Assembly (NCBI GenBank): GCA_035691305.1
Contig: DASSJF010000005.1
Span: 11,380-75,379, forward strand
Direction of reading: 5' to 3'
Source of the DNA: a bacterium
Lineage (GTDB): Bacteria > Sysuimicrobiota > Sysuimicrobiia > Sysuimicrobiales > Segetimicrobiaceae
DNA length: 64,000 nucleotides
The first letter of the stretch is position 1; each line of letters opens with the position of its first letter. Below, one piece after another: positions 17,832 through 36,358 of this stretch. The position numbers and the translations under genes are program-made. The notes under the pieces were generated by a model. The model did no database searches. It was given only the letters and a program-made list of their open reading frames with translations, and had not been told where the DNA came from.

Positions 17832-17861
17832 GAACCGGGCGACCGGAGACCAAGGGGGACC

Positions 17862-18497
17862 ATGCGGCAGCACGCACCGGGTTGGGCAATCACGACGGCG
17901 GCCGTCCTTGGGTTGTTGAGCTGGGTAACGATGCCCGCTTTGGCCCACGAGCATCGCACAGCGGGAACCGTCGCCATGACGGTAGGATGGGGCGACGAGC
18001 CCGCGTACACCGGTATGAAGAACACGGTGCAGGTTATCCTCGCCGATAAAGCCGGCAAACCGATCGAGGACGTTACCGACACCCTCAAGGTGGAGGTTCG
18101 CTTCGGATCCCAGCTCAGCGGGCCGCTCGACATCGAGCGCGCCTTCGGGCGGACCTTCGGGCGGCCGGGCGACTACCGGGCGCAGATCGTGCCCACCCGG
18201 CCGGGCACCTATTCGTTCCACTTCACCGGTACGGTGGACAACCAGAAGATCGACGAGACGTTTACATCGTCAGACAAGACGTTCGACGATGTCCGGGAGG
18301 CGACCGCGATCGAGTTCCCCGCCAAAGATCCGTCCACGGCGGACCTCAACGGCTTGGTCCAGCGGCTCGGTCCCCGCGTCGGCGAGGCCGCATCGGCTGC
18401 GGGCCGTGCCGTCACCGTCGGGACAATCGGGCTGATCGCCGGCCTTGTGGGCATCGCCGTCGGCCTGGGCGCGATGCGGCGGAAGCGGCCCGGATAA
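17862..18497 (+). CDS. YcnI-like (DUF1775-like) secreted, C-terminally membrane-anchored putative copper-binding protein
   Basis: 211 aa. Signal peptide ending ALA|HEH gives a mature N-terminal His. A C-terminal TM helix is followed by RRKRPG. First gene of an operon with a CopC-CopD fusion. The fold assignment is inferred from architecture and context, not from strong motif identity. Confidence 0.45.
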   Translation: MRQHAPGWAITTAAVLGLLSWVTMPALAHEHRTAGTVAMTVGWGDEPAYTGMKNTVQVILADKAGKPIEDVTDTLKVEVRFGSQLSGPLDIERAFGRTFGRPGDYRAQIVPTRPGTYSFHFTGTVDNQKIDETFTSSDKTFDDVREATAIEFPAKDPSTADLNGLVQRLGPRVGEAASAAGRAVTVGTIGLIAGLVGIAVGLGAMRRKRPG

Positions 18498-20892: not shown

Positions 20893-21661
20893 CCCAGTAA
20901 CAGAGAAACGCCGCGGTGCCGCCGTGCGCGCGGCCGCGGGAGCCGCCGCCGCCGGAATCCTCGGCGCCGGGCTGCTGGTCGCCGCCGCGCTGGGCCGGAC
21001 GGGCCCGACCTGGCTGGCACGAGGTCTTTACGATGGCGTCGTGCCGCTCCCGCCGTACCAGTGGGTGCACCCGCCACGCGAACTGGCGCAGGACAATCGC
21101 CCGCCCCAGCCGAGCCGGGCCACCCGCGACCTGGACGCCTCCGGAAAGTCTCCGGGCGCCGTCGCCACCGGCGACGCCCAGTGCACGGTCATCCTTAACG
21201 ACGGGGCACTCGCCGCGGGGCCCTTCGGCCGGACCGTCACCGTGACGATCACCCCGCTCGATCCCGCCTCGATCGGCCCGCCGCCGCCGGGCATGCGGTT
21301 CGACGGGAACGCCTGCCGGTTCGGGGCCGTCTTGGGACAGAGCGGCGCCGTCCCGCAGTTCAAGCGTCCGGTAACGATCGTGCTGCGATACGCCACCGGC
21401 GGCAGCGGGATCGTTCGGGCGTTGCCCGGCGCGGCGCCGGTCTGGCAGCTCACCCGGTCCGTGCAGTACGCGGGCCACCTGCACCTGCTGGTCGGGGACG
21501 TCACGGCGTTGGGAACGTTCGCACCTGTGGCGCCCGCCGGAACTCCCTACGCGCAGAGGACGCCGTGGCTCGCGTACGTGGCCGTCGCGGGGGCGGTTGC
21601 GGTTTTCGTCGGGCTACTCTGGCTGAGGCGAAAACCGCCGCGCCCGGCAGGCGCCGCCTGA
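20870..21661 (+). CDS. uncharacterised Pro-rich two-TM membrane protein (paralog 1)
   Basis: 263 aa. N-terminal TM helix, a Pro-rich extracytoplasmic domain of about 200 aa (PPYQWVHPPRELAQDNRPPQP ... ITPLDPASIGPPPPGMRFDGNACRF ... RPVTIVLRY), then a C-terminal TM helix and a basic tail. The start may instead be GTG at 20924. Confidence 0.5.
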   Translation: MRRSPSSDPVTEKRRGAAVRAAAGAAAAGILGAGLLVAAALGRTGPTWLARGLYDGVVPLPPYQWVHPPRELAQDNRPPQPSRATRDLDASGKSPGAVATGDAQCTVILNDGALAAGPFGRTVTVTITPLDPASIGPPPPGMRFDGNACRFGAVLGQSGAVPQFKRPVTIVLRYATGGSGIVRALPGAAPVWQLTRSVQYAGHLHLLVGDVTALGTFAPVAPAGTPYAQRTPWLAYVAVAGAVAVFVGLLWLRRKPPRPAGAA

Positions 21662-22654
21662 CAGCAGCTGGTCCGCGGTTCCGCCCAGCACCCGCCGTTC
21701 GTCGTCGGGGCTGATGTGCGCCGCCCGCACCTGGTCGGCCGGGCGCTCCACCCCCATGTCAAACGGATAGTCGGAACCCATCACGACGTGATCGGCGCCG
21801 GCGTACTCGACGAGCTGCCGCAAGAGGGTGACGTCGTGCACGATCGTGTCGTAGTAGAACCGTCGCAGCGATTCGTCCGGCGGCATCTCGAGGCGCGCCC
21901 GCGCGGCCGGAACTTCCTCGTATGCGTGGCGGAGACGGCCCCGCAGCGCGAGCACCGCGCCGCCGCCGTGCGCGAGCACGATGCGGAGGCTGGGGAACGA
22001 CTCCAGCAGTCCGCCCATGACGAGGTCGGCCGCCGTGATCGTGGTCTCGAGCGGGTTGCCGACCGCGTTGCCGAGGTGATGGCGGCTGAACGCCGGATTG
22101 TCGAAGCCCCGCGTCGTCGGATGGATGAACACGACCGATCCGAGCGCGGCCGCGGCCTCCCAGAACGGCCGGAAGCGATCGTCGCCGAGGTAAGCGCCGC
22201 GGACGCTCGCGGCGATCTCGACGCCGGCGAGGCCGAGGTTCGCGACGGCTTCCAGCTCGCGGGCGGCCAGCTCGGGGTCCTGCAGCGGCACCGTCCCGAG
22301 CGCCGCGACGCGCCCCGAATGCGCGCGCACGAGCGAGGCGAGCGCGGCGTTCTGGATGCCGCCCGACTCCAACGCGTCGTGCGGGTCTGCGTCGTAGCGC
22401 AGAAGCCCCACGAACGGACAGAGCACCACCCGATCGCTGCCGGCCGCGGCGGTTTCGGCGAGCAGACCCTCCGGGTTCACGAACTCATGGCGGACCGAAC
22501 GGACCTCCACGCCGCCGATCTCGATGCGCTGCCGGTCGCCGTCTCGCGCAACTGTGGGCCGCCACGGCTCCGGGCCGCGGTCGCGCGTGATCTGCGGGAC
22601 GATGATGTGGACGTGCGCGTCGACGACGGGCGCGTCAGTCCGCCGCGCGGTCAT
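21614..22654 (-). CDS. amidohydrolase-2 family protein (ACMSD-like metal-dependent decarboxylase/hydrolase)
   Basis: 346 aa. VDAHVHI, HPTT, LAHGGG and DYPFD metal-ligand motifs of the TIM-barrel amidohydrolase_2 family. Confidence 0.8.
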   Translation of the reverse strand: MTARRTDAPVVDAHVHIIVPQITRDRGPEPWRPTVARDGDRQRIEIGGVEVRSVRHEFVNPEGLLAETAAAGSDRVVLCPFVGLLRYDADPHDALESGGIQNAALASLVRAHSGRVAALGTVPLQDPELAARELEAVANLGLAGVEIAASVRGAYLGDDRFRPFWEAAAALGSVVFIHPTTRGFDNPAFSRHHLGNAVGNPLETTITAADLVMGGLLESFPSLRIVLAHGGGAVLALRGRLRHAYEEVPAARARLEMPPDESLRRFYYDTIVHDVTLLRQLVEYAGADHVVMGSDYPFDMGVERPADQVRAAHISPDDERRVLGGTADQLLSGGACRARRFSPQPE

Positions 22655-24009
22655 CGGCGGCCGGGCGCGCCTCCGCCCTCGGAGCGCGCGCCGGCGACGA
22701 CCCGCTCGGCCGGAGACGGCGCCGCGGCGCCGCGGTTCATGTTAGACTGCGCCTCGCGCGTCGACTCGAGCGGCCCCGTCGCGGTCCAGTAGCGCGTGCC
22801 GGCGACGAGGAGCTTCTCCGCCGGGAAGCGGGTGATGACCTCGCAGCCGTCCTTGGTCACGACCAACTGCTCCTCGATCCGGGCCGCCGACCAGCCGTCG
22901 GCGGCCGGCCAGAAGGTCTCGAGCGCGAACACCATCCCCTCTTCGATCACCTCGGGGTGGTCCAACGAGACGAGCCGGCTGAAGATCGGCTTCTCCCAGA
23001 TCGAGAGCCCGACGCCGTGGCCGTATTGGAGCGCGAACGCCGCCTCTTCGTCGGCAAACCCGAACTCCTCCGCCTTCGGCCACACGCGAACGACGTCGGC
23101 GGTCGTCACGCCCGGGCGGATCAAGGCGAGCGCCGCGTCGAGGTAGTCGCGGCAGCGGCGGTAGGCGTCGACCATCGCGGGCGAAGCGCTGCCGACGCAG
23201 AACGTCCGGTAGTAGCAGGTCCGGTAGCCGTTGTAGGCGTGGAGGATGTCGAAGTACGCCGGGTCGCCCGGGCGCAGCACGCGGTCGGTGTAGACGTGCG
23301 GATGCGGGCTGCACCGCTCGCCGGAGATCGCGTTCACGCCCTCGACGTGCTCGGAGCCGAGGTCGTAGAGCACCTTCGCGACGAGCCCCACGCATTCGTT
23401 CTCCCGCATTCCGGGCCGGAGCGCCCCGTACAGCTGCTCGTATGCCGCGTCGACCATCATCACCGCGGTCGCGATCAACGTGATCTCGTCGACGGTCTTG
23501 ATCTTGCGGACGTCCTGCATCAGCGTCTGCCCGTCGACGATGCGCAGCCCCTCCGCCTGCAGCGCAAACAGCACCTGGGGTTCGATGATGTCCACGGCCA
23601 GCGGCTGCCGGTGCAGGCCCCTCGCCTCCAACTCGGTGCGGATCTTCTTCGCGACGTCGCGCGCGCTCTCAGGATACGCGCCGCGGAGCGTCGAGATGCC
23701 GGCGCGCGACCGCTCGCCGAGCCACGGGCAGTACAGCCGGTGGTGCCGCGCCGCGGAGCCGAAGTCCCAGAGGATCGGCTCGTCCCCGCGGGGGAGCAGT
23801 GCGAAGCGCACGAGCTTGTCGATCGCCCACGTGCCGATGTGCGTCGCTGTGATGTATCGGATGTTGTTCATATCGAAGCAGAGCAGCGCCCCGCAGTCGG
23901 ACGCGTCGAGGCGGCGCTTGACCCGCGCGAGCCGCTCGGTGCGCAGTCGTTCGTAGTTGACGCGCTCCTCCCAGTCGACCGTCTGCAGGCCGAACGTCTT
24001 AATCCCCAT
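22651..24009 (-). CDS. M24 family metallopeptidase (creatinase/Xaa-Pro aminopeptidase-like)
   Basis: Real start is the internal MGIKTFGLQTVDWEE, ATG at 24009. Creatinase-N domain plus pita-bread fold (HGVGLSIWE, EEGMVFALE). Its stop overlaps the downstream amidohydrolase ATG (ATGA). Confidence 0.8.
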   Translation of the reverse strand: MGIKTFGLQTVDWEERVNYERLRTERLARVKRRLDASDCGALLCFDMNNIRYITATHIGTWAIDKLVRFALLPRGDEPILWDFGSAARHHRLYCPWLGERSRAGISTLRGAYPESARDVAKKIRTELEARGLHRQPLAVDIIEPQVLFALQAEGLRIVDGQTLMQDVRKIKTVDEITLIATAVMMVDAAYEQLYGALRPGMRENECVGLVAKVLYDLGSEHVEGVNAISGERCSPHPHVYTDRVLRPGDPAYFDILHAYNGYRTCYYRTFCVGSASPAMVDAYRRCRDYLDAALALIRPGVTTADVVRVWPKAEEFGFADEEAAFALQYGHGVGLSIWEKPIFSRLVSLDHPEVIEEGMVFALETFWPAADGWSAARIEEQLVVTKDGCEVITRFPAEKLLVAGTRYWTATGPLESTREAQSNMNRGAAAPSPAERVVAGARSEGGGAPGRR

Positions 24010-24946
24010 CGCCGCCCTCCCCGCCGCCCTCCGCCGCCCGCCGGTCTGCGCCGCGCGCCGGCGGGCGCGCCTCCACCCCGGCCATCTCCGCCAGGACGTC
24101 AAACATCGCCGCGAAGTCCTGCTCCGCGAGGCCCATGGCACGCGCCGCGGTCAGCCATTCGTTGGCCACCGCCGTCGTAGGCAGCGGCACGCCGAGCACA
24201 CGGCCCATCTCCGCCGCGAGCACCAAGTCCTTCTGCATCATCGTACAGTCGAACCACGCCTCCGCCGGCATCTCGAGGACGAAGGGCCCGCGGTACTTGA
24301 GCATCGGCGAGGCGATCGCGCTGTTGAGCAGCACGTGGACCGCGGTCTTCCGGGCGATGCCGCCCTTCTCCGCGAGCAGCACCGCTTCGCAGAAGGCCAG
24401 CACCTGCGCGCCGAGATTGAGGTTGGTGGCGACCTTCATCAGCGCCGCTTGGCCGTTCTCGCCGACGTGCGTCACAACCGGGCCGATCGCGAGCAGGACC
24501 GGACGCACCCGCTCGACGACCTCCCGATCGCCGCCGACCATGATCGAGAGTCGGCCTTCCTCCAATGTCACGAGGCTGCCCGAGACCGGCGCGTCGAGCA
24601 TCGCCGCGCCCCGCTCCCGCACCCTCGCGGCGAGCTCGCGGCTGATGCGCGGGCTCACGGTGCTCATGTCGACGTAGACCTTGCCGGGACCCAGGCCGGC
24701 GAGAATGCCGTCGGGTCCCTCGGTGACCGCGCGAAGCGCGCCGGTATCCGTGACCATCGAAAACGTGATCTCCGCCGTGGCGGCGACGGCTCGCGGAGCC
24801 GGCGCGAGCGTGAGACCGGCCTGCTCGAGCCACCGGGCCTTGGCGGCCGTGCGGTTGAAGCCCGTGACCGTGTGGCCCGCGTCCAACAGGCGCTTCGCGA
24901 TGCGGCCGCCCATGGCGCCGAGGCCCACGAATCCGAGGTATGCCAC
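23999..24946 (-). CDS. NAD(P)-dependent 3-hydroxyacid dehydrogenase (3-hydroxyisobutyrate dehydrogenase/MmsB family)
   Basis: 315 aa. GFVGLGAMGG Rossmann motif and catalytic ...SGS...K pattern. Overlaps the M24 start by 11 nt. Confidence 0.8.
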   Translation of the reverse strand: MAYLGFVGLGAMGGRIAKRLLDAGHTVTGFNRTAAKARWLEQAGLTLAPAPRAVAATAEITFSMVTDTGALRAVTEGPDGILAGLGPGKVYVDMSTVSPRISRELAARVRERGAAMLDAPVSGSLVTLEEGRLSIMVGGDREVVERVRPVLLAIGPVVTHVGENGQAALMKVATNLNLGAQVLAFCEAVLLAEKGGIARKTAVHVLLNSAIASPMLKYRGPFVLEMPAEAWFDCTMMQKDLVLAAEMGRVLGVPLPTTAVANEWLTAARAMGLAEQDFAAMFDVLAEMAGVEARPPARGADRRAAEGGGEGGDGD

Positions 24947-24995
24947 TCCCGCCTCCCATTTCGCGAACGCGACAAGCGGAGTCCGGCGCCGCGGC

Positions 24996-25538
24996 GTGGT
25001 ATTCCCTTACTCGTTGGACGTCCTCCTACCTCTCGTCGCGGGATTTCTCGGCAGCGCGGCGCTCGCGCTGCGTCCGCCGGCCACCGTCGCCTCGCTTGCG
25101 ATTACCCTCGCGACCGGCGTAATCGGCGGCGCCACACCGGTGCCGCGGGCGCCACGCGGGGACGGCGCGCGGCTGTCGTGGCTCGCCGTGGCGGCAGTCG
25201 GGATCGCGGCCTTCGCCGCGGCCCGCGCGCTGCAGCATCCCCTGGCGCCGAAGATGACGCCGCTCCTCGTCGCCGCGACCGCGGCCGCCGGCGTCGCCGA
25301 AGAATTGCTGTTCCGCCGGCTGCTCTATGGCGCGCTCGCGGTGTACGGCGCCGCGCTCGCCGTCGGCGGATCCGCGGCGGTCTTCGCCGCGGTTCACGTG
25401 CCGGCGTACGGCGTCGCCGCGTTCCCGGTGGATCTCGCGGCCGGCCTCGTCTTCGGATGGCAGCGCTGGGCGTCCGGCACCTGGACGGCCTCGGCCGCCA
25501 CTCATGCCGCCGCAAATCTGATCCAGGCCGCGTGGTGA
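24996..25538 (+). CDS. CPBP family intramembrane metalloprotease (CAAX protease/PrsW-like)
   Basis: About 180 aa. Four TM segments with the EELLFR motif-1 glutamates and the FAAVH motif. GTG 24996 or TTG 25014 start. The upstream part of the 285-aa track ORF is antisense to the dehydrogenase gene. Confidence 0.7.
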   Translation: MVFPYSLDVLLPLVAGFLGSAALALRPPATVASLAITLATGVIGGATPVPRAPRGDGARLSWLAVAAVGIAAFAAARALQHPLAPKMTPLLVAATAAAGVAEELLFRRLLYGALAVYGAALAVGGSAAVFAAVHVPAYGVAAFPVDLAAGLVFGWQRWASGTWTASAATHAAANLIQAAW

Positions 25539-25545
25539 GCGCCCC

Positions 25546-26286
25546 GTGGTAATCATCGGGCGCGCGCGCTTGACGGCCGCGGCGTGGGGAATCGCCGCGG
25601 CCGCCGTGTACCTGGTGGCCGCCCCGCTCGCGTGGCACCACGTCCCGGCGCGGCTGCTCTACGAAGGCGAAGCTCCGCCGGCTCCGTATCACTGGATCGC
25701 CCCGCCGCCCGACCTCGCGCGGGACAACCAGCCGCCGACGGGTGGAACGGGACAGATCGGCCTCAACCCCACCGGCTCCGGATCCGCCTCGATCCTGACC
25801 GACGACGCGCAGGCCGGCATCATCTTCCCGCACGATTCGGTGGCGCCGAGGCCCGGTGTCACCGCCGCAATCGTGCGGATCACGGCGGTCGACCCGGCGA
25901 AGGTCGCGCCGCCGCCCCCCGGCCTCGTCTTCGACGGCAACGCCTACCGCGTGGACGCGGCCTATCAGAATGACGGCGCGATCGTGCTGCGGCGCCCCGT
26001 CACGCCTGTGCTGCGCTATCCCCGGCACGCCACCGTGCTGCTGCGGTGGAGCGACGGGGCGTGGACGGCGCTCGACAGCAAGCGCGTCCCGGCGGCGTTG
26101 CAGATCTTCGCGGCCTCAGACCGCTTGGGGGTGTTCGTGGCGGCCGGCCCGGGGGGCGGCGGGTCATCCCGGGCGGTCTACGCGATCGGGGCGGCGGCCG
26201 CGCTGCTCGCCGCGGCGGCGGTCATCTGGATGATCAGACCGAACCGGCGTAAGGGTACGCGGCGCGGCGACGGTCCGACCGCCTGA
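25546..26286 (+). CDS. uncharacterised Pro-rich two-TM membrane protein (paralog 2)
   Basis: 246 aa. Same architecture and collinear motifs as 20870..21661 (APYHWIAPPPDLARDNQPPTG, ITAVDPAKVAPPPPGLVFDGNAYRV, RPVTPVLRY). Begins 8 nt after the CPBP stop. Confidence 0.5.
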   Translation: MVIIGRARLTAAAWGIAAAAVYLVAAPLAWHHVPARLLYEGEAPPAPYHWIAPPPDLARDNQPPTGGTGQIGLNPTGSGSASILTDDAQAGIIFPHDSVAPRPGVTAAIVRITAVDPAKVAPPPPGLVFDGNAYRVDAAYQNDGAIVLRRPVTPVLRYPRHATVLLRWSDGAWTALDSKRVPAALQIFAASDRLGVFVAAGPGGGGSSRAVYAIGAAAALLAAAAVIWMIRPNRRKGTRRGDGPTA

Positions 26287-26290
26287 ACCG

Positions 26291-27571
26291 TCAGCTCCCG
26301 GCGACGAGGAGATCCTCGGGGAGCCCGGCGGTCACGTGTTCGCGCCCGGTCTCGGTCAAGAGGAATGTGTGGCCGTAGAAGAGCCCGAGCAGTCCGTCCG
26401 GCGTGATGGGGTTCGGCTCGAGCATCAGCTCCATGCCCGGCCGCATCACCCGATCGGCCGGCTCGGCGTGCACGCCGTCGACGCGCACGTCCGGATGGTG
26501 GCTCGTGAGATCGATCCCGTGCATCACGATCGGCCGCGACTGGTAGCCGCGCTCGCGGAAGACCGCCGTCTTCCGCTGCATCGCCTCGAAGGTGTTGCCC
26601 GGCCGCAGCTCCTCTGCGAGCAGATCGAACCCCGGGCGCACCACCTCGTCCCACATCGCCCGCACGCGGTCGGTCGGCCGGCCGACGCAGATCGGGATCC
26701 CGATCTGCGCGGTGTAGCCCTCGTAGCCTGCGGCGAGCTCGTTCAGGATAAGATCGCCCGGACGGAGCCGCCGCCCCGACGGCCGCGGATTGCCGAAGAC
26801 CATGCTCGGCGCGTCCATCGGCGTGCTGCCGATGATGAGGAAATCGAGTTCGCCGCCGCCGGCGAGGATCGCCGACGCGGCGGCCGCTTTCAGTTCGTAC
26901 TCGGCGACGCCTGGCCGCGCCGCGGCGCGGACGGCGCGCAGCGCCGCGACGCAGAGCGCGCCGGCCCGGCGGACGCGCGTCTGTTCTTCCGTGCTCTTCA
27001 CGACGAGCAACTCGTGAAAGAAGTCGCCTACCAGCTCGAGCCGGGCGTCCGGCAGCTCCGCGGCCAGACGCCGGTATTGGTTGTACGGCAGGTAATCGCC
27101 GTATCGCGGATCGATCACCGCGATGCCGATCCGGCCACCGGCGTGTCCCCGCTCCTTCGCCACGGCCGCCAGCGCCTCGCCGAACTGGCCGCCCGGCGCC
27201 GGACGCACGTCGCGCACGGCGACCGCGCGGCGCGTCGCTTCGATGTGCGTGCCGCCCATCCCGTACACGAGCGCCGGCTCGCCCTCGCGCGGCACGTAGA
27301 GATAGACCGAGAGCGCGTGCCATTCGCGGTGATTGCTGAGCCAGAAGACCCCGGCGCCGTAGCTCCAGTGGTTGGGCCCGCCGCAGGCGATGAGCCCGTC
27401 GAGAGCGAGGCGAGCCATCTTGTCGCGGGTCGCGGCGAGGCGGCGCGCGTGCTCCGCGTCGGAGAACCGCTCGTACACCGCGTCGGCGTAGTACGGCGTG
27501 CCCGTGAGGCGGCCGAAGTTCGCGCCGCTGTCGAGGGCGCCGCGCGCCGATTCGAAGTCGCGGGATGACAC
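26291..27571 (-). CDS. M24 family metallopeptidase (creatinase/prolidase-like), second copy
   Basis: 426 aa. Creatinase-N-like N-terminus and M24 core (DFLIIGSTP, GYEGYTAQIGIP, HGIDL). Confidence 0.8.
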   Translation of the reverse strand: MSSRDFESARGALDSGANFGRLTGTPYYADAVYERFSDAEHARRLAATRDKMARLALDGLIACGGPNHWSYGAGVFWLSNHREWHALSVYLYVPREGEPALVYGMGGTHIEATRRAVAVRDVRPAPGGQFGEALAAVAKERGHAGGRIGIAVIDPRYGDYLPYNQYRRLAAELPDARLELVGDFFHELLVVKSTEEQTRVRRAGALCVAALRAVRAAARPGVAEYELKAAAASAILAGGGELDFLIIGSTPMDAPSMVFGNPRPSGRRLRPGDLILNELAAGYEGYTAQIGIPICVGRPTDRVRAMWDEVVRPGFDLLAEELRPGNTFEAMQRKTAVFRERGYQSRPIVMHGIDLTSHHPDVRVDGVHAEPADRVMRPGMELMLEPNPITPDGLLGLFYGHTFLLTETGREHVTAGLPEDLLVAGS

Positions 27572-27620
27572 CGCAGTCGACCTCCTCTCTGCTCCGGGCG
27601 GCCGGGACGTCCTGCCGCGG

Positions 27621-28454
27621 TCAGTCGTCCCGCCCGGCGAACTGCCAGGGCGCGATCCGCACCTCGACCCAGCGCAGCGCCTGAACCAACGTCACCCCGG
27701 TGATCGAAAGGATCACCACCGGCACCAGCAGGCGGTCGATCTGGAGGTTCTGGGCATAGCGGACGATGAGGTAGCCGACGCCCGAGACGGAGGTGTACAG
27801 GTCGGCAATCACCATCCCGATGAGCGCGCGGCCGAGGGCGAGCCGCACGCCCGCCACGATGAACGGCAGCGCCGACGGCAGGATCACGTCACCCCACAGC
27901 GCCCGCTCCGAGGTGCGAAACGAGCGCGCGACCTCCAGGAGGCGCGCGTCCACCCCCCGGACGCCCTGGTAGGTATTCAGCAGCACCGGAAAGACCGCGA
28001 ACAAGAAGATCACGACGGTCTTGCCGGCGTCGCCGAAGCCGGCCCAGATCACGACGAGTGGAATCAGCGCGACCATCGGCGTCGAGTACAGCGCGATCAC
28101 GAACGGCTCGAGCGAGAGGTCGAGCAGGCGCACGCGCGCGATCAACACCCCGGCCGCGATGCCGACGACGGTGCCGAGGAGCATGCCGGCCCCCGCGACG
28201 CGGAAGCTCAGGCTGAGGTACGGCCACAGCTCGCCGGAGACGACCATCTGCGCGCCGGCCGCGATAATCCGCGACGGCGGCGCGAAGAGCAGCGGGCTCA
28301 TCTCGCGGGCGCCTACCTCCCAGATCGCGAGCACGGCACAGACCGACGCCACGCGGACGATCGCGTCCTGCAGCCGCCGGCGCCGCCGGAGGCGCGACGC
28401 CGCGGCCTGTACCGCCCGTTGCTGCGACGACAGCACCGCCGCCTGGCCGTTCAC
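27621..28454 (-). CDS. ABC transporter permease (NitT/TauT family, SsuC/TauC-like)
   Basis: Six TM helices with the EAA-like loop (LEVARSFRTSERALWGDVILPSALP). Likely GTG start at 28454 overlapping the ATPase stop (GTGA). Confidence 0.8.
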   Translation of the reverse strand: MNGQAAVLSSQQRAVQAAASRLRRRRRLQDAIVRVASVCAVLAIWEVGAREMSPLLFAPPSRIIAAGAQMVVSGELWPYLSLSFRVAGAGMLLGTVVGIAAGVLIARVRLLDLSLEPFVIALYSTPMVALIPLVVIWAGFGDAGKTVVIFLFAVFPVLLNTYQGVRGVDARLLEVARSFRTSERALWGDVILPSALPFIVAGVRLALGRALIGMVIADLYTSVSGVGYLIVRYAQNLQIDRLLVPVVILSITGVTLVQALRWVEVRIAPWQFAGRDD

Positions 28455-29212
28455 TGGATCTCCTGCCGCAGCAGGTCCCACACCCGTGACCGCAGGGCGC
28501 CGAACGCGGGGTCGGCGCGGACCGCGGCCAGGGCACGGGGCCGTGGAAACGGGACCGGCAGCACATCGCGCACCCGCGCCGGACGGGATGTCAGTACGAT
28601 GACGCGGTCGCCGAGCAGCAGGGCCTCGTCAATGCTGTGCGTCACGAACACGATCGTCTTGCGCTCCTGGTCGAGGATGCGCAGCATCTCTTCCTGCAGG
28701 ATCTCGCGGGTCTGTGCGTCGAGGGCCGCGAACGGCTCGTCCATCAGCAGCACCTCTGGTTCGATCGCGAGCGCCCGCGCGAGCCCGACGCGCTGCTGCA
28801 TGCCGCCGGAGAGTTGATACGGGTAGTACGGCGCGAACGTCTGGAGCCCGACCAGCGTGAGCGCACGCCGTACGCGGCCGTCGGCTTCCGTTCGGGAGAC
28901 GCGGGCCAAGCGGAGCCCGTAGGCCACGTTGGCCTCGACCGTCTTCCAGGGGAAGAGGCCGAAGTGCTGAAAGACCATCGCCATGCGCGACGGCGGCGCC
29001 GTGACCGGCGTCCCGTCGAAGAGGATGCGGCCCGCCGACAGCGGCACCAGGCCGTCGATGCACCGCAAGAGGGTCGTCTTTCCGCAGCCGCTCGGTCCGA
29101 CGATGCAGAGAATCTCGTTGTCGTAGACGTCGAACGAGAGGTCCTCGAACGCGCTGACGGTGCCGCCCGCGAACATCCGGCACGCCCTCTCGATCCGAAT
29201 CTTGGGCGTCAC
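28451..29212 (-). CDS. ABC transporter ATP-binding protein (NitT/TauT family)
   Basis: Walker A GPSGCGKTT, signature LSGGMQQRV, Walker B LLMDEPF. GTG start at 29212 overlaps the upstream hydrolase stop (GTGA). Confidence 0.85.
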   Translation of the reverse strand: MTPKIRIERACRMFAGGTVSAFEDLSFDVYDNEILCIVGPSGCGKTTLLRCIDGLVPLSAGRILFDGTPVTAPPSRMAMVFQHFGLFPWKTVEANVAYGLRLARVSRTEADGRVRRALTLVGLQTFAPYYPYQLSGGMQQRVGLARALAIEPEVLLMDEPFAALDAQTREILQEEMLRILDQERKTIVFVTHSIDEALLLGDRVIVLTSRPARVRDVLPVPFPRPRALAAVRADPAFGALRSRVWDLLRQEIQ

Positions 29213-30291
29213 CGCAGCTGTTCCGCCATGAAATCCGCGACGAGCGGCCGGTATTTGTAGGTGATGTTGTTGCAGACGTGGTTGCCGTCGGGGTACAGCA
29301 CCCACCGCTTGGGCCCCGCCGCGCGCTCGTACGTGCGGTACGCGTCTTCGGGCGGGATCAAGGTGTCTTGCGCGCCGTGTACGACGAGGAGCGGCGCCGT
29401 GATGCGCGCCGCGCAGTCGGCGAGCGTGGCGCCCCGGCTGCGGGCCTCCAGTTCCGCGTGATCACGCGCCCCCCAGACGTGCAGCCACCGCGCGAGATGC
29501 GGCCCGCGGTGCAGGCGGCCTTCCTCCAGGCTGTGCAGGCCGCCGCACGACGCCACGGCGCGGAGGCGCGGCTCGAACGCGGCGCACCGAGGCGCAAGGT
29601 AGCCGCCGAGGCTGACGCCGCAGACGCCGACCCGCGTGCCGTCGACGTCGCCGCGCCCGAGCAGGTAGTCGATCGCCGCCGTCGCCGTGACCTCCCAATC
29701 GGCGCGCATCTTCATGCGGTACCACGTCTCGCCCTGGCCCGGCCCGTCGAGGGTGAGCGTCGCGAGGCCCCGCCGCAGGAAAAACCGCTCGAAGGTGGCG
29801 TGCTCTTCTTTGATCGAGTCGAGCCCGGAGAGAAACAAGACGACGGGCGGCCTGGAGTCCCCTCCGGGGGCCGCGCCGGCGGGGTCCACGCGCGGGCGAC
29901 GCAGATAGCCCGGAATCCGGACCGTCTCGAGGGGAAACTCGACGCGCTCGGCCGGCGGATCGAGCCAGGGCAGCGCGCGCCGGTAGCAGTCCACGCAGCG
30001 CTCGTGGCCGTGAGTGTACTCATCCAGGTTCTCCGTCCAGCTGAAAACGGCGAAATGGTAGGCGATCGCGGCCCGGTAGTACGCCTCCCCCGCGGTGAGA
30101 CCGAATCCGCCGATCTCGGCGTCGCGGGCCAGCCGCTCGTGGCCGCCGGCCAGATCCATCCACGCTCCGTACCACTGGTCCCAGGTCTCGAGCCCGCCGA
30201 CGACGCGACGGTAGTCGCTCGGATCCACGCCGTTGGCGACGAGCCGCGGCTCCCAGACGCGGCCGACGTAGCGGACCCGCTCGTCAGGCAT
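29209..30291 (-). CDS. alpha/beta hydrolase (FrsA/DUF1100-like)
   Basis: 360 aa. GVSLGG nucleophile elbow and a C-terminal HG..D acid/His region. Confidence 0.7.
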   Translation of the reverse strand: MPDERVRYVGRVWEPRLVANGVDPSDYRRVVGGLETWDQWYGAWMDLAGGHERLARDAEIGGFGLTAGEAYYRAAIAYHFAVFSWTENLDEYTHGHERCVDCYRRALPWLDPPAERVEFPLETVRIPGYLRRPRVDPAGAAPGGDSRPPVVLFLSGLDSIKEEHATFERFFLRRGLATLTLDGPGQGETWYRMKMRADWEVTATAAIDYLLGRGDVDGTRVGVCGVSLGGYLAPRCAAFEPRLRAVASCGGLHSLEEGRLHRGPHLARWLHVWGARDHAELEARSRGATLADCAARITAPLLVVHGAQDTLIPPEDAYRTYERAAGPKRWVLYPDGNHVCNNITYKYRPLVADFMAEQLR

Positions 30292-30309
30292 GGCGGGTGG
30301 CGGCGGCGG

Positions 30310-31353
30310 CTACTCGCAGCCCTCGGGAACCGGGACCGCGCCGCCGGCCTTGGCGAGCGCCTCGTTGGCGAGACCCGCGTCGACGATCTGACTCGCCGGG
30401 TAGACGTTCCGGAGGTTGCCGCCGGCGTGCTCGAACTGCGTGGTCCAGTCGATGCGCCTCGAGTCGAGCCCGAGGTTGCGCGCCCAGATGCAGCCGGTGA
30501 CGACTTTCCCGTACGCGTACGCGACGTCCTCGGCGTCTTCGTGCGTGATGTCGGTCAGCGCCTTGATCGTCTCCGCGCGGTGCGCGTAGGCATACCGCAC
30601 GGCGAGAATCGTCGCCGCGGCCAGGTTGACGACCGCCTGCCGGTGAGCCTGCACCCACGGGCGAAGCCCGCAGTAGGCGTTGTACTCGTAATCGGGCAGC
30701 GCCTTGTAGAGATCGTACAGAACGTGGAAACCCCGCTGGGTGCGCAGCACCTTGCTCGCCTGCTCCAGATGGAAGAGCGCGGTGTCGTTCTGGCCGGTCA
30801 CGAGCGCCGGCACGCGCCCGGCGGTGGTCGTCGGGACCATCGTCACGTCTTCGGCCCGCAGGCCCGCCTTCGCGAGGATCGCGCGGTTCATGCGATCGAT
30901 GATGCCCCCGGGCGCGCCCGAGAGCCCCATCTTCCGCCCCTTGAGGTCTCCCAGCGTCTTGATGCTGTCGCGCGCCACGAGCACGAAGTCGGTCCGGGGA
31001 GCCGGCGCATAGAACATCGAGATCTGGACCCCGTTGCCGTTCGCGACCTGGCAATCGATGAGACCGACGTTGATGCCGCCGGCGATCGCCGCGGTGAGCG
31101 CGCGCGTCGAGCCGTCGAAGTCGAGCACCGACAGGTCCACGCTGAATTTGTCCATGAACCCGAACGCCTTCGCCAGCTCGACCGGCGCGTGGACCACGTT
31201 CGGCGGCGCCGTCGGCTGGCCGAAGACGATCTTGTCGTGCGGCCCGGCGGGCGGGAACTGGGGTGCCGCCGGAGCGGCAAGACCCGAGGGCGCCGCGCCG
31301 GCCACGGCGAGCGCGGCGACGGCGAGCGCCGCGGAGAGCAGTCGGGGTCTCAT
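30310..31353 (-). CDS. ABC transporter substrate-binding protein (NMT1/THI5-like, SsuA/TauA family)
   Basis: 347 aa with signal peptide MRPRLLSAALAVAALAVAGA. ATG overlaps the upstream Mo-subunit stop (ATGA). Confidence 0.8.
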   Translation of the reverse strand: MRPRLLSAALAVAALAVAGAAPSGLAAPAAPQFPPAGPHDKIVFGQPTAPPNVVHAPVELAKAFGFMDKFSVDLSVLDFDGSTRALTAAIAGGINVGLIDCQVANGNGVQISMFYAPAPRTDFVLVARDSIKTLGDLKGRKMGLSGAPGGIIDRMNRAILAKAGLRAEDVTMVPTTTAGRVPALVTGQNDTALFHLEQASKVLRTQRGFHVLYDLYKALPDYEYNAYCGLRPWVQAHRQAVVNLAAATILAVRYAYAHRAETIKALTDITHEDAEDVAYAYGKVVTGCIWARNLGLDSRRIDWTTQFEHAGGNLRNVYPASQIVDAGLANEALAKAGGAVPVPEGCE

Positions 31354-33719
31354 CGCTCACCGCCTTTCGCATCACGAATCGCCCGCCACAGCCGCTCCGG
31401 CCGCAGCGGCAGGTCGAGGTGCGTGATCCCGAGCGGCGCGAGCGCGTCCATGACGGCGTTGGCCACCGCGGGCGGGGCCGCGATCGAGCCCGCCTCCCCG
31501 ACGCCCTTCGCGCCGAGCGGGTTCCAGGGCGAGGGCGTTTCGACGAAGACGCCGTGCACGGACGGCGTGTTTGCCGCCCGCGGCATCGCGTACTCGCCGA
31601 ACGTCGTCGTCAGCGGCTGACCCGCCTCGTCGTAGACCGCTTCCTCGAGGAAGACTTCGCCGACGCCCTGCGCGACGGCGCCGACGACCTGCGCCTCGGC
31701 GAGAAACGGATTGACGATGCGGCCGCCGTCGTCGACCGCGACCAGCGACAGGATTCGCGCGGCCCCCGTCTCCGCCTCGACCTCGACCACGGCGACGTAG
31801 GCGCCAGACGGAAAGACCGGACTCGGCAGGGCGAACGTCGCCGATGCGTCGAGCCCCAGCTCCATGTCGCGCGGCAGGCGTCCCGGCTGGTACGCGGCCG
31901 CCGCCACCTCCGCGAACGAGACGCCGCGCGCGGCCGCGCCGCGAACCGCATACCGGTCGCCGTCGCGAACGAGGTCGGTCGGCGCGGCCTCAAGCAGGTG
32001 CGCCGCGATCCGCGCGGCCTTCTCCTGGATCTTCTGCGCGGCGACCCACAGCGCCGACCCGCCGCAGGTGATCGACCGGCTGCCGAACGTGCCCACGCCG
32101 CGGGGCACGACCGCGGAATCCCCGTGCTCGACCGTGATCCGGTCCGGCGGCACGCCGAGCGCGTCCGCGGCGATCTGGGCGAACGTCGTCTCGTGCCCCT
32201 GGCCGTGCGGGGTCGAGCCCATGCGCGCGACGACACGGCCGTCAGGCGAGACGGTGATCGCCGCGGCCTCCCACAGGCCCGTACCGGCGCGTTCGACGTA
32301 CGCCGCGATGCCGATGCCGAGAAGGCGTCCCTCGGCGCGCGCGCGCTCCTGCTCCTTCCGCCAGCGCCCGTAGCCGATCGCCTCGAGCCCGCGCTCGAGG
32401 CAGAGCTCGAACCGTCCGGAATCGTACACCCACCCGAGCGGCGTGCGGTACGGGAACCGATCGGCGGCGATGAAGTTGCGCCGGCGAATCTCGGCAGGAT
32501 CCAGTCCCGTCGCATGCGCCGCGAGATCTACCAGCCGCTCCATCATATACACGGCTTCCGGGCGGCCCGCGCCCCGATACGGCCCCGTCGGGGGTTTCGT
32601 CGTGGCGACGCCGATCAGCTCGACGTCCGCAGCCGGCGTGGTGTACGTGTTGATGATGAGGATCGCCGCGGTGAGCGGGACCGTCGTCGTCGCGGGATAC
32701 ATGTACGCGCCGAGGTCGGCGAGGATGCGCGCGCGCAATCCGAGAAACCGGCCGTCCTTGTCCACGGCCAGCTCCGCGTCCGCGTCGATGCCGCGCGCCT
32801 GATAATTCGAGAGGAAGTTCTCGCGCCTGGTCTCCATCCACTTGACCGGCCGGCCGAGGTCCATCGCCAGCAGCGCCGCGACCGCCACCTCCGGCGCCGG
32901 ACTGCCCTTGACGCCGAAGCCGCCGCCGACCTCCGGCACGATGACGCGCAGCCGGTCCTCCGGACGGCGCAGTACCCGGCTCAGCTGGGCGAGCGGGCGG
33001 TGCGGATCCTGCGTCGAGCACCACACGGTCAGCACGTCGGTGCCGGGATCGTAGGCCGCGGCCCCTCCCCGCGGCTCCATCGGCGCCCCGACCATCCGGG
33101 GAATCTCGAAGCGCGCGCGCACCACGTACGCGGCCGACGCGATCGCTTCGTCCACGTCGCCGTGGCTCCGCCGCCAGCGGAGCAGCGCGTTGTCCGGCGC
33201 GGCCGCGTGGACCGCGACGGCGCCGCCGAGGGCGGCCCGCACGTCGGTCACCGCGGGCAGCTCATCGTACTCCACCTCGACGAGCGCGGCCGCGTCAAGC
33301 GCCGCCGCCGGCGTCTCTGCGGCGACCGCCGCGACGGGCTCCCCGGCGTACCGGACCACGCCGTCGGCCAGAATCCGCAGCGGCGCAGGCGTGACCTTCG
33401 CGCCCTCGGCGACGTTGATGGGGAACGCCTCCGTCCGGCCGACGACGTCGGCGCCCGTGACCGCGGCGACGACTCCGGGCGCGCGCCGCGCCGCGTCGGT
33501 CGAGATGCGGCGGATGCGAGCGTGCGCGACGGGGCTGCGCACGACGGCAAGGTATACGACGCCCGGCAGCGCGAGGTCGTCGACGTAGCGGGCGACGCCG
33601 CGGATCGGCCGCAGCGTCTCGTGCGGACGCACGCTCTTCCCGATCCACGGCGCGGACAGCGCCTGCGGTGCGGCCGGAGCGTGCGGTGTGGCCGTACCGG
33701 CCGAGTGATCGTCGGTCAC
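31350..33719 (-). CDS. xanthine dehydrogenase/aldehyde oxidase family molybdopterin-binding large subunit (CoxL-like)
   Basis: 789 aa. N-terminal a/b-hammerhead (IGKSVRPHE...GVARYVDD), GGGFG Mo-cofactor motif and a long MPT-binding C-terminal part. No small FeS or medium FAD subunit genes lie adjacent. Confidence 0.85.
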   Translation of the reverse strand: MTDDHSAGTATPHAPAAPQALSAPWIGKSVRPHETLRPIRGVARYVDDLALPGVVYLAVVRSPVAHARIRRISTDAARRAPGVVAAVTGADVVGRTEAFPINVAEGAKVTPAPLRILADGVVRYAGEPVAAVAAETPAAALDAAALVEVEYDELPAVTDVRAALGGAVAVHAAAPDNALLRWRRSHGDVDEAIASAAYVVRARFEIPRMVGAPMEPRGGAAAYDPGTDVLTVWCSTQDPHRPLAQLSRVLRRPEDRLRVIVPEVGGGFGVKGSPAPEVAVAALLAMDLGRPVKWMETRRENFLSNYQARGIDADAELAVDKDGRFLGLRARILADLGAYMYPATTTVPLTAAILIINTYTTPAADVELIGVATTKPPTGPYRGAGRPEAVYMMERLVDLAAHATGLDPAEIRRRNFIAADRFPYRTPLGWVYDSGRFELCLERGLEAIGYGRWRKEQERARAEGRLLGIGIAAYVERAGTGLWEAAAITVSPDGRVVARMGSTPHGQGHETTFAQIAADALGVPPDRITVEHGDSAVVPRGVGTFGSRSITCGGSALWVAAQKIQEKAARIAAHLLEAAPTDLVRDGDRYAVRGAAARGVSFAEVAAAAYQPGRLPRDMELGLDASATFALPSPVFPSGAYVAVVEVEAETGAARILSLVAVDDGGRIVNPFLAEAQVVGAVAQGVGEVFLEEAVYDEAGQPLTTTFGEYAMPRAANTPSVHGVFVETPSPWNPLGAKGVGEAGSIAAPPAVANAVMDALAPLGITHLDLPLRPERLWRAIRDAKGGER

Positions 33720-33786
33720 CGCAGACCCCCTTTTGTCGCGCAGATCGATACAGGCTTAGGCTACGGAACGGCGGCGGGCGAGTCCT

Positions 33787-34512
33787 TTACAGCGCGGGTC
33801 GGACCGGAAACACCTGAAGAATCCAGGCGTTGAGACGGTAGATCCAGTCGAAGAGAAGCGCCGCGCCCATCACGACCAGGAACGCGCCACCCGTGACCTC
33901 GATCGCGTGTGCGTAGCGCCTGATCGCACGGAGCGCGCCGAAAGCTCTCGTGAGCAGCGCGGCGGTGACGAGAAACGGCAGGCCGAGGCCGAGCGAGTAC
34001 GCGAACAGCAGCAGGGCACCGTCGGCCGCGCGCGCCGTCGTCGCCGCGAGCGTCAGGATCGCGCCGAGGACCGGTCCGACGCACGGCGTCCACGCAAACC
34101 CGAACGCCATGCCCACGAGCACGATCCCGGCCAGCCCGGCCGGCCGGGCCGAGAACGCGAAGCGCCGTTCGCGGGAGAGCCCGGGGATCCGCAGCACCCC
34201 CAGCATGACGAGACCGAACAGAATGACGATCGCGCCGCCGATCCGGCCGAGCAGCTCCCGGTTGCCGAGAATGAACCCGCCGGCGAGAGACGCGGACGCC
34301 CCGAGTCCGGTAAACACGAGGGAGAAGCCAAACACGAAGAGCAGCGTCGCCCCGACGACGCGCCAGACGTGCCGTCGCCGTTCGGCCGCCTCGACCTCGA
34401 GCAGCGAGACGCCCGACACGAACGATAGGTAGCCCGGGATGAGCGGCACGATGCACGGCGAGAAGAAGCCGAGCACGCCGGCGGCGAACGCGATCACGAG
34501 CGAGAGATGCAC
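33787..34512 (-). CDS. ccdA: cytochrome c biogenesis thiol-disulfide transporter CcdA (DsbD-beta family)
   Basis: 241 aa. Six TM helices with the two conserved Cys (FFSPCIVPL and WTPCVGPVL). Confidence 0.85.
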   Translation of the reverse strand: MHLSLVIAFAAGVLGFFSPCIVPLIPGYLSFVSGVSLLEVEAAERRRHVWRVVGATLLFVFGFSLVFTGLGASASLAGGFILGNRELLGRIGGAIVILFGLVMLGVLRIPGLSRERRFAFSARPAGLAGIVLVGMAFGFAWTPCVGPVLGAILTLAATTARAADGALLLFAYSLGLGLPFLVTAALLTRAFGALRAIRRYAHAIEVTGGAFLVVMGAALLFDWIYRLNAWILQVFPVRPAL

Positions 34513-34524
34513 CGGGTCTCCGCG

Positions 34525-35040
34525 CTACCGATTCGCCAGCGCGTCGATGGCCGTTCGCAGTTCCGCCTCGCCCGCCGGCCCGTACCCCGCGCGAACGACC
34601 GTCCCGGCCCGCGAGATCACGGCCCAGTACGGCTGGTAGGTGAAGCCGTACGACTTGGCGACGCGCTCGTCCCCGTCGTACGCGTTCGGAAACGACAGGT
34701 GATACCGCTTCACGAACGCCTCGCAGGACGCGCGCCCGGCGAGCAGTCCGATGCCCAAGAGCGCCACGCCCTTCGCCCTGGCCTCACCGTCCGCGCGCTC
34801 CCACCCGGGGGCGTCTCCGTTGCAGGTGGGTCACCACGGCGCCCAAAACAGCAGGATGACGGGCTTTCCTTTAAATGACGCGAGGCTGACGGACCCGCCG
34901 CCGAGCAGGGGCAACTGAAAGTCGGGCGCCCGAACCGGAGCCGCCTGGGCGATTTCGGGGGCGGACGGCGCGCCCGGAGCGACGCCAATCAGGATGCTCG
35001 CCGCCAGCGCGATCGCAAGTGGAGCAAGCCGGGACGGCAC
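34525..35040 (-). CDS. TlpA/ResA/DsbE-family thioredoxin-like protein with a single in-frame TGA at the first Cys of WCxxC (candidate selenoprotein W-U-P-T-C; alternatively a pseudogene)
   Basis: Track ORFs 34831..35040 and 34525..34767 are in the same frame, separated only by TGA (plus-strand tca 34831-34833). Read through, they give a 171-aa protein ...GKPVILLFWAPW[TGA]PTCNGDAPGW...HLSFPNAYDGDERVAKSYGF.... GTG start with AGGAG SD. A hairpin begins immediately 3' of the TGA. The gene lies directly upstream of ccdA. Confidence 0.55.
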
Positions 35041-35048
35041 GACGGCTC

Positions 35049-35843
35049 CTAGTGACGCCAGCGGGGCGGGCGTTTTTCGAGGAAGGCCCGCATCCCCTCT
35101 TGCGCGTCCGGCGCCAGCGCGTTCTCCACCATCACCTTTTGGGCGACGGCGTAGGCCTCTGGCCGGTCCTTGGAGAGCTGCTGGTAGAAGCCGCGCTTGC
35201 CGATCGCGAGCGTATACGAGCTGGCGGCGATCACCTGGGCAGCGAGGGCCATCGTCTCTGCCTCAAGCCGGTCGGTCGGGACGATGCGGTTGACGAGGTC
35301 CGCGCGCCGGGCGTCCTCGGCGCTGATGGGCGTCCCCGTCAGCAGCATCTCCATCGCCTTCCGCGGACCAACCGCCCGTGCGACGGCCACGCCGGGCGTG
35401 GTGCAGAACAGACCGTTCTTGACTCCCGGCGTGGCGAACGTAGCGTCCTCGGAGGCGACGACGAGATCGCAGGTCGCGACGAGTTGGCAGCCGGCGGCGG
35501 TGGCGAGGGCGTGCACCTGGGCGATCACCGGCTTGGGCAACGTCCGGATCGTCTCCATGACGCCGGTGCAGACGTCGAACAGCGAGGCGACGTCGGCCTC
35601 GGGCTGGCCCACGAGTTCGCGCAGGTCGTGGCCGGAGCTGAACACCGGGCCCACCGCGCGAATGACGACGGCGCGCACCCGGTCGTCGTCGGCGGCCCGG
35701 TCGAGGGACCGCTGCAACTCCTGAAGCATCGCGCGCGACAGGGCGTTGCGGCGCTCCGGATGGTTGAGGGTAAGCACGGCGACGTTCTCTTTGACCTCAT
35801 ACAGGAGAAGCGGTTTCTGCTGCTGCTCTACCGGCGCGCTCAT
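35049..35843 (-). CDS. enoyl-CoA hydratase/isomerase family protein
   Basis: Crotonase fold with an oxyanion-hole region (AVIRAVGPVFSSGHDL, GLFCTTPG). Start M at 35843 (GGAGGGG SD); a second ATG at 35849 is possible. Confidence 0.85.
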   Translation of the reverse strand: MSAPVEQQQKPLLLYEVKENVAVLTLNHPERRNALSRAMLQELQRSLDRAADDDRVRAVVIRAVGPVFSSGHDLRELVGQPEADVASLFDVCTGVMETIRTLPKPVIAQVHALATAAGCQLVATCDLVVASEDATFATPGVKNGLFCTTPGVAVARAVGPRKAMEMLLTGTPISAEDARRADLVNRIVPTDRLEAETMALAAQVIAASSYTLAIGKRGFYQQLSKDRPEAYAVAQKVMVENALAPDAQEGMRAFLEKRPPRWRH

Positions 35844-36358
35844 CCTCATCACCCCTCCGAAGACTACACTCCGGAGACTACAACGGATGCGCAAGGCCAT
35901 TCCTTCCTGTTGAGAGTGCCCAAAAACGTGGCCGGCGGGCGCTCCGGGAGCGCCCGCCGTTAGACCGCCGGGCCTCGTTTCCCCCCGTTACGAGGCCCGG
36001 CCGAACAACGGTCTGCGTCGAGGCAGGTAGCGAAAACTGTTGCTGCGGACGGCGATTCGAAGAAACCCTATGAGCCCGACCGACAGCAGGGCCAACGGGA
36101 CTCCATATGCGATCGTCAACATCAGCCGGTCCGTGCTCCTTAACATCCCAGAGTTGAGTTTACTTGGCCCGGGCGGGAGCAGTAATCGGGCGATGGCCCT
36201 ATTGGGATCCAAAATCGGGTCTCCACCCGATGCCGGCGGGGGCCGGCGGCGGAGGGTCTCCACTTGCTCGCCGGCGTGGGCGATTATTCGGGGATTTGGG
36301 TGGGAATGAAGCGGTTAGAGGGTCACTGAGGCGCGACGGGGGTGGTGGCGAACTGGGC

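Follow-up and report, generated by a model that had tools for sequence, protein, structure and literature searches.

In a 64,000-nucleotide stretch of DNA from an uncultured, high-GC soil bacterium of the family Segetimicrobiaceae, taken from a metagenome-assembled genome (GTDB phylum Sysuimicrobiota; NCBI GenBank assembly GCA_035691305.1, contig DASSJF010000005.1, positions 11,380 to 75,379 of the forward strand), referred to here in its full length as the window, the gene for the large, molybdopterin-binding (L) subunit of an XDH-family molybdenum (Mo) enzyme stands in a real and conserved minus-strand cluster with genes for a NitT/TauT-type ABC importer, a FrsA-like alpha/beta hydrolase and an M24-fold enzyme, and without genes for the small 2Fe-2S (S) and medium FAD (M) subunits. 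A solitary L subunit is a stable feature of the clade, and the cluster is an uncharacterised member of a familiar class, that of catabolic clusters containing a Mo hydroxylase. Our preferred reading, to which we give about even credence and which is drawn by analogy with the Kdh and DHPONH enzymes of nicotine degradation, is that of a two-unit catabolic cluster in which Mo hydroxylation would be followed by DHPONH-type C-C hydrolysis, with S and M subunits coming from elsewhere.

Gene order, junctions and recurrence

Coding frames were chosen by third-position GC, in a window whose G+C content is ~71%, and each gene was checked with Pfam. The minus-strand order that an earlier, sequence-only reading of this DNA had proposed, running from the L subunit through the substrate-binding protein (SBP), hydrolase, ATPase and permease to an M24 enzyme, proved correct. 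From the L gene onwards, the genes are:

31350..33719, minus strand: XDH/CoxL-family molybdopterin (L) subunit, 789 aa (Pfam Ald_Xan_dh_C, MoCoBD_1 and MoCoBD_2)
30310..31353, minus strand: NMT1/SsuA-like periplasmic SBP (Pfam NMT1, 1e-15; N-terminal hydrophobic signal sequence)
29209..30291, minus strand: FrsA-like alpha/beta hydrolase, assigned to the DHPONH/Ayg1/AntI C-C hydrolase group (PDB match 2JBW, 1.6e-43)
28451..29212, minus strand: NitT/TauT-type ABC ATPase (Pfam ABC_tran)
27621..28454, minus strand: ABC permease, SsuC/TauC-like (Pfam BPD_transp_1)
26291..27571, minus strand: M24a, an enzyme with Creatinase_N and M24 folds (Pfam)
23999..24946, minus strand: beta-hydroxyacid dehydrogenase of the 3-hydroxyisobutyrate/tartronate-semialdehyde reductase family (HIBDH; Pfam NAD_binding_2 and NAD_binding_11)
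22651..24009, minus strand: M24b, a DddP-like M24 enzyme (Pfam M24)
21614..22654, minus strand: ACMSD-family (Amidohydro_2) non-oxidative decarboxylase or hydratase (Pfam; human ACMSD, 1e-41)

Three of the four junctions between the L gene and the permease gene are 4-nt overlaps, namely ATGA at 31350-31353 (L/SBP), GTGA at 29209-29212 (hydrolase/ATPase) and GTGA at 28451-28454 (ATPase/permease). The sequence-only reading had claimed such an overlap at every one of these junctions, which does not hold between the SBP and the hydrolase, where a TAG stop is followed by 18 nt and an ATG start. Beyond the permease lie a 49-nt gap, a GAGAGGAGG ribosome-binding site and the GTG start of M24a. Taken alone, the overlap motif is weak evidence, because ATGA or GTGA ends 12 of the 40 coding-like open reading frames (ORFs) of the window and 4-nt overlaps are commonplace here. 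The GTG starts of the ATPase and permease are nevertheless supported, since similarity to their orthologues in two related loci (L001 and L013) begins exactly there; the ATPase keeps its GTGA overlap and start in both, and the permease of L013 has ATG at the position homologous to the GTG.

What would be unit 1 of the cluster (about 26291-33719, possibly from further upstream) comprises the importer, L subunit, hydrolase and creatinase-fold enzyme, and unit 2 (21614-24946) would contribute the beta-hydroxyacid dehydrogenase, the DddP-like M24 enzyme and the ACMSD-like decarboxylase. The genes flagged earlier are thus all present, but the functional unit is larger, reaching 21614 through this second coupled unit, in which the dehydrogenase and M24b genes share an 11-nt overlap and M24b is joined to the ACMSD-like gene by ATGA at 22651-22654. 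Unit 2 travels with unit 1 in relatives. In the window, the cluster is split by an opposite-strand gene pair (25014..26286), both members of which are kept in L001, and the end of M24a converges on the end of a plus-strand gene (26286/26291, 4 nt apart); the operon lies mid-window, which leaves no room for the case that the earlier reading had named as a refutation, S and M genes of one operon continuing past the window's edge. That the Mo subunit heads the operon, as had been supposed, is not established: because three co-directional genes (33787-35900) sit just upstream, separated by gaps of 8 nt (hydratase/redoxin), 12 nt (redoxin/DsbD_TM) and 67 nt (DsbD_TM/L), the L gene may be internal. 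An Rfam scan of the whole window at the gathering threshold, and of the locus at E up to 1, returned nothing, so that no thiamine pyrophosphate (TPP) or Mo cofactor (Moco) riboswitch is there to hint at the substrate.

The gene set recurs, in shuffled order and with swapped transporters, in loci whose L subunits are 46-86% identical to that of the window (L001, L002, L007, L098, L068/L087, L111, L115, L129, L132 and L178). The order is that of the window in L001 (84% L identity). At 68% identity, L002-L005 carry DsbD, L, M24a, hydrolase, HIBDH, M24b, NMT1, ABC and permease genes in that order; at 63%, L007 has M24b within an E1-E2 2-oxoacid dehydrogenase operon, followed by the hydrolase, a TAXI-TRAP transporter, a cupin and L; and at 62%, L098 presents M24b, E2, ABC, NMT1, Amidohydro_2, amine oxidase, hydrolase, M24a and L. 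More distant members are L099 (60%) and L115, L128, L129 and L132 (54-58%). A flavin amine oxidase and a cupin adjoin the hydrolase and L genes in several of these related clusters, and in more than 12 independent loci the hydrolase and L genes are co-directional and at most 4 kb apart. When metagenomes were scanned with the hydrolase alignment and loci of at least 8 kb were counted (43 loci), the partners found were M24b in 18, HIBDH in 14, Amidohydro_2 in 9 and L in 8. The core of hydrolase, M24b and dehydrogenase is therefore commoner than the combination with a Mo enzyme, and the Mo step is accessory to it, not defining.

The solitary L subunit

The three Pfam domains of the L subunit are full length (E-values 1e-28 to 1e-78), and its full-length alignments with PDB entries include Mycobacterium CoxL (8UEM, 2e-158), QorL (1T3Q, 8e-153) and KdhL (7DQX, 4e-146). 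The active-site loop reads PYRGAGR, compared with AYRCSFR in carbon monoxide (CO) dehydrogenase, AYRGVG in QorL and AYRAPGR in KdhL, and is of the Qor/Kdh type and not of the CO dehydrogenase type. Aligned with CoxL, QorL and KdhL, it keeps the GGGFG motif, the Gln of STQ, the Arg of the YRG loop and the catalytic Glu of the C-terminal GAKGVGE, and on these motifs it is predicted to be catalytically intact. The gene is under purifying selection, with a ratio of nonsynonymous to synonymous substitution (dN/dS) of 0.15 relative to L001.

That the Mo subunit is solitary, and that this is atypical for its family, was already noted by the sequence-only reading and is borne out. No ORF of the window has a Pfam match to Fer2_2 (S) or FAD_binding_5 (M), and a six-frame tblastn search of the window with S and M queries taken from related loci, three of each, gave only noise (best E = 0.06). 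Among 75 genome loci with L homologues of 50% identity or less, by comparison, S and/or M adjoin L in 72 and both do so in 64. In the clade of the window's own L subunit (56-100% identity, ~17 loci), S and M are never encoded in cis; neither was found within the sequences of L001, L002-L005, L007, L098, L099, L115, L128, L129 and L132. Phylogenetic placement, which the earlier reading had proposed as a check, puts the window's L subunit in this single orphan clade, sister, in a neighbour-joining tree built without bootstrap or other support values, to a clade with complete L, M and S genes (LMS). The sister clade, composed of L068 and L087 (Solirubrobacteraceae), L111 and L178, has the arrangement Amidohydro_2, hydrolase, in part M24a, and L, with coxM-coxS downstream and the M24b and HIBDH genes in the vicinity; as it pairs the same partner enzymes with coxM-coxS, these enzymes would normally work with a full LMS enzyme. 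The simplest history is that the M-S genes were lost or relocated once, in the ancestor of the orphan clade.

There is no sign that the subunit interface has been relaxed, since, of the 111 columns with at least 95% conservation among S/M-linked L subunits, 87% are kept in the orphan clade and 78% in its S/M-linked sister clade. Moreover, several L genes can share a single M-S pair, to judge from L009/L010, where an operon of M, S and two L genes (12410-18444; the two L are 43-45% identical to that of the window) stands beside a third, divergently oriented L gene of the orphan clade (59% identity), giving a local L:S:M ratio of 3:1:1. Most likely, then, the S and M subunits for the window's L subunit are encoded elsewhere in the genome and supplied in trans.

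The closest known system is that of KdhLMS and DHPONH in the pyridine pathway of nicotine degradation, on plasmids of the Paenarthrobacter nicotinovorans pAO1 type. The Kdh holoenzyme is an LMS complex (PMC8305194). On the nicotine plasmid, kdhC (L) stands alone and divergent to the DHPONH gene, and kdhA and kdhB (M and S) make up another unit at a distance of 4.3 kb, so that both systems have an L gene unlinked from M and S and near a gene for a Ser-Asp-His hydrolase of the DHPONH family; both L subunits are of the XDH family, with a non-CO-dehydrogenase loop and the catalytic Glu. Related clusters and the nicotine cluster also have amine-oxidase, cupin and CN-hydrolase families in common, although the amine oxidases and cupins are not orthologues of the nicotine proteins, nor the amine oxidases of 6HLNO in particular. 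The differences are substantial. The window's L subunit and hydrolase are only 37% and 33% identical to their nicotine counterparts, respectively; where Kdh binds its substrate with E345 and W551, the window's L subunit has Thr and Phe (residue roles from PMC8305194); M and S, 4.3 kb off on the nicotine plasmid, are absent for at least 30 kb on either side of the window's L gene; and the nicotine cluster has no counterpart of the ABC importer, the two M24 enzymes, the ACMSD-like enzyme or the HIBDH-like enzyme.

Other systems share less. QorLMS of Pseudomonas putida 86 has a loop of the same type, and Qor is encoded together with its own M and S subunits. The CoxL-like proteins called "form II", a name defined by the motif AYRGAGR, fall in the same motif class as the window's PYRGAGR; form II genes typically lie in operons of the coxS-L-M type, whereas the L gene of the window lies without S and M in a transporter/hydrolase cluster. 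Picolinate degradation pairs a Mo hydroxylase with an ACMSD-family decarboxylase (PicA/PicC), and such pyridine-carboxylate clusters resemble that of the window, by family only, in combining an XDH-family hydroxylase with an Amidohydro_2 decarboxylase; they have neither a DHPONH-type hydrolase nor M24 enzymes. A literature search yielded nothing relevant on this combination of enzymes or on orphan or form II coxL genes.

Predicted pathway and competing explanations

The hydrolase is 33% identical to the plasmid-encoded DHPONH over 355 aa, its full length, and after the DHPONH structure 2JBW its next solved relatives are the polyketide C-C hydrolases AntI and Ayg1. Across ten aligned sequences, DHPONH among them, Ser227 (in a GxSxG context), Asp309 and His338 do not vary. 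Placement in the DHPONH/Ayg1/AntI group of FrsA-like hydrolases makes retro-Claisen C-C cleavage its predicted activity. The importer belongs to the NitT/TauT family, with an NMT1/SsuA-type SBP, a TauB/SsuB-like ATPase and a TauC/SsuC-like permease in one operon; the best NCBIfam models, all below cutoff, are SsuA_fam for the SBP, taurine and nitrate ATPases for the ATPase, and SaoP/SsuC/TauC for the permease.

The remaining enzymes can be placed less closely. M24a has weak matches only, to prolidases, creatinase and DoeA; creatinase 1CHM scores just 1.5e-7, prolidases score better, and there is no NCBIfam equivalog. Judged by eye against the canonical motifs, both metal-binding Asp residues seem to be missing, as in creatinase, and M24a is probably not a metallopeptidase. 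M24b is the most conserved protein of the cluster (72-86% identity across phyla), and DddP structures (4S00 and 4B28) are its best PDB matches. DddP (NF043017) is likewise its best NCBIfam model, at 123 bits against a cutoff of 600, so that the resemblance is distant and identification as the dimethylsulfoniopropionate (DMSP) lyase DddP was rejected; its second canonical metal-binding Asp is apparently replaced by Cys (GYRTCYYRT), again by eye. The beta-hydroxyacid dehydrogenase, whose NCBIfam matches are below cutoff, co-occurs with M24b in many loci. The ACMSD-like enzyme belongs with the ACMSD family both by full-length similarity (human ACMSD, as listed above) and by its His and Asp motifs, seen as DAHVHI, FIHP, LAHGGG and GSDYP (HxH, His, His and Asp), positions taken as those usual in ACMSD.

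Put together, these parts suggest a cluster that would import and degrade a small nitrogen compound. In a step modelled on KdhLMS acting on 6-hydroxypseudooxynicotine, an imported acyl-substituted N-heteroaromatic, or a similar activated ketone, would be hydroxylated from water at the Mo centre of an L subunit assembled with 2Fe-2S and FAD subunits encoded elsewhere; the Ser-Asp-His hydrolase would then cut the resulting vinylogous beta-diketone by retro-Claisen C-C cleavage, leaving fragments for the remaining enzymes to decarboxylate, hydrolyse and reduce. The analogy with Kdh and DHPONH and the conserved linkage are the grounds on which we infer the reaction order, the substrate class and the provision of S and M in trans. 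The earlier likening of this cluster to those for N-heterocycle catabolism gains support from the DHPONH-like hydrolase with its invariant triad, the Qor/Kdh-type loop of the L subunit, its scores against QorL and KdhL, which come close to that against CoxL, and the precedent of kdhC and DHPONH.

Several results weigh against this two-step pathway. No protein of the cluster reaches an NCBIfam equivalog cutoff, and the top model for the L subunit, that of the alpha subunit of archaeal glyceraldehyde dehydrogenase, gives 663 bits where the cutoff is 790. S and M genes of the host were not found within the 64 kb searched. The core of hydrolase, M24b and dehydrogenase occurs mostly without any Mo enzyme, as the metagenome counts show, and, conversely, L orthologues of 64-66% identity occur without the hydrolase, as DsbD-DAO-L with peptide-type ABC genes. 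No orthologues of the amine oxidase or cupin of the related clusters are present in the window. Finally, the limits of the transcription units rest on spacing only, because a promoter and terminator scan of 21000-36500 was uninformative: it showed nothing promoter-like, and its terminator-like sites did not exceed background.

The main rival is that the L subunit belongs to an aldehyde oxidoreductase (similar to glyceraldehyde dehydrogenase or PaoABC), oxidising an aldehyde made by other enzymes of the pathway, which we regard as unlikely yet the most serious of the alternatives. The glyceraldehyde dehydrogenase model outscores that of CoxL (663 against 578 bits), the Sulfolobus enzyme 4ZOH is a strong PDB match, and in relatives L adjoins amine oxidases or DAO, which yield aldehydes and imines, as well as Aldedh and SDR genes. 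The score nonetheless falls short of the model's cutoff, QorL and KdhL outrank 4ZOH as matches by phmmer, and the tight, recurrent linkage of L with a DHPONH-type hydrolase mirrors the pairing of Kdh with DHPONH. More improbable is an incidental adjacency, by which L would belong with the DsbD/redoxin neighbourhood or act alone, the importer, hydrolase and M24 genes being those of an unrelated pathway. Most hydrolase loci do lack a Mo enzyme, and at 64% identity or more DsbD_TM is paired with L also in loci that have no hydrolase and M24 genes; against this, the ATGA overlap couples L directly to the SBP gene, and the linkage of hydrolase with L survives rearrangements and transporter swaps across two sister clades.

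Still less probable, in our view, is an L subunit that functions without the canonical S and M partners, through a new electron route or acceptor or in a non-redox role, which would be an undescribed architecture in the XDH family. The depth of a clade without S and M in cis, the 64 kb around the gene without S- or M-like sequence and the purifying selection on L would fit such an idea. However, the S/M-linked sister clade keeps the conserved residues of the family no better than this clade does, one clade member adjoins an M-S-L-L operon, the product of the unlinked kdhL still forms LMS, and no candidate replacement partner recurs in the clusters; an XDH-family enzyme without the 2Fe-2S module is not known. 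Least credible of all, and hardly to be entertained, is that L is the large subunit of an aerobic CO dehydrogenase, as JGI names of several homologues have it and as the Mycobacterium CoxL structure, the top PDB match, might suggest. Assignment to form I CoxL was rejected since PYRGAGR has no Cys where the loop of CO dehydrogenase (AYRCSFR) carries its Cu-binding Cys and the TIGR02416 score of 578 bits lies far from the cutoff of 991, and the window has no coxM, coxS or cox accessory genes.

If the pathway by Mo hydroxylation and C-C hydrolysis is correct, uncultured bacteria of soil and thermal soil would possess a catabolic route not described before, with the logic of the nicotine pathway re-used for another nitrogenous compound, and the deep clade would be one of catalytic L subunits behaving as plug-in modules that share electron-transfer subunits encoded elsewhere. 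Nothing known is overturned, given the precedent of kdhL for unlinked L genes and the ordinariness of 4-nt overlaps. The clade is useful for annotation, because the label "CO dehydrogenase large subunit" that many of its members carry is at odds with their active-site loop, and for picking targets for substrate discovery.

Flanking genes and other observations

The genes immediately around and within the cluster are:

25014..25535, plus strand: Rce1-like CPBP protease (tblastn with the Rce1-like protein of L001, 76% identity)
25546..26286, plus strand: membrane-anchored 246-aa protein (no Pfam match)
33787..34512, minus strand: DsbD_TM/CcdA-like membrane thiol-disulfide transporter (Pfam DsbD_TM)
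34525..35040, minus strand: TlpA/ResA-like redoxin with an in-frame TGA (from its translation)
35049..35900, minus strand: enoyl-CoA hydratase/isomerase, with which the co-directional run opens (Pfam ECH_1, 7.6e-56)

DsbD_TM lies directly upstream of L, or one DAO gene away, in every relative of at least 64% identity for which flanking sequence exists (L001, L002, L006, L011, L013, L014 and L097); the adjacency persists where the hydrolase and M24 genes are absent and is not seen in more distant loci of the orphan clade. DsbD_TM was not adopted as a redox partner of L, the adjacency being confined to this subclade; it may be plain synteny, and membership of DsbD_TM in the pathway is doubtful. 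The enoyl-CoA hydratase is kept in the closest relatives only.

The TGA of the redoxin (34831-34833) takes the place of the first Cys of a WCxxC motif (FWAPW[TGA]PTC). It is kept in L001/L012, a relative of 84% identity, and replaced by a Cys codon in L013, the classic pattern of alternation between selenocysteine (Sec) and Cys, which makes the redoxin a candidate selenoprotein; a hairpin resembling a selenocysteine insertion sequence (SECIS) right after the UGA folds no more stably than shuffled sequence. The redoxin is probably unrelated to the catabolic genes.

M24b turns up in other settings as well. In Armatimonadota-like relatives it is part of an acetoin-type 2-oxoacid dehydrogenase operon with the order E1alpha-E1beta-M24b-E2 (L007, 760-4300; L099, 3148-7707; L098, 1-2257). 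M24b homologues of 65% identity occur with RidA and an NAD(P) oxidoreductase on Paenarthrobacter plasmids (L096, 7196-12228, of Paenarthrobacter sp. R1, and L094), and the group adjoins sulR/sadC, the flavin reductase of sulfonamide degradation. As a lead to the substrate this was dropped, the paper on these strains being silent on the genes in question and the heterocycle being a dead-end product there.

The region as a whole has many genes for the catabolism of nitrogen compounds. A hydantoinase A/B pair of the oxoprolinase or N-methylhydantoinase type occupies window positions 75-4047 (plus strand), and the 21 kb before the cluster also encode a gamma-glutamyltranspeptidase, an M20 peptidase, RidA and two ketopantoate-reductase-like proteins. 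Close to the cluster lies a CopC-CopD fusion gene (18524-20491, plus strand), and in L007 and L098 the surroundings of the orphan L gene include similar CopC/CopD genes, along with genes for AhpC-TSA and multicopper oxidases. Further along the window, at 56459-58928, a LigD primase-polymerase gene (plus strand) converges on one for an ATP-dependent DNA ligase (minus strand), a pair of the non-homologous end joining (NHEJ) type.

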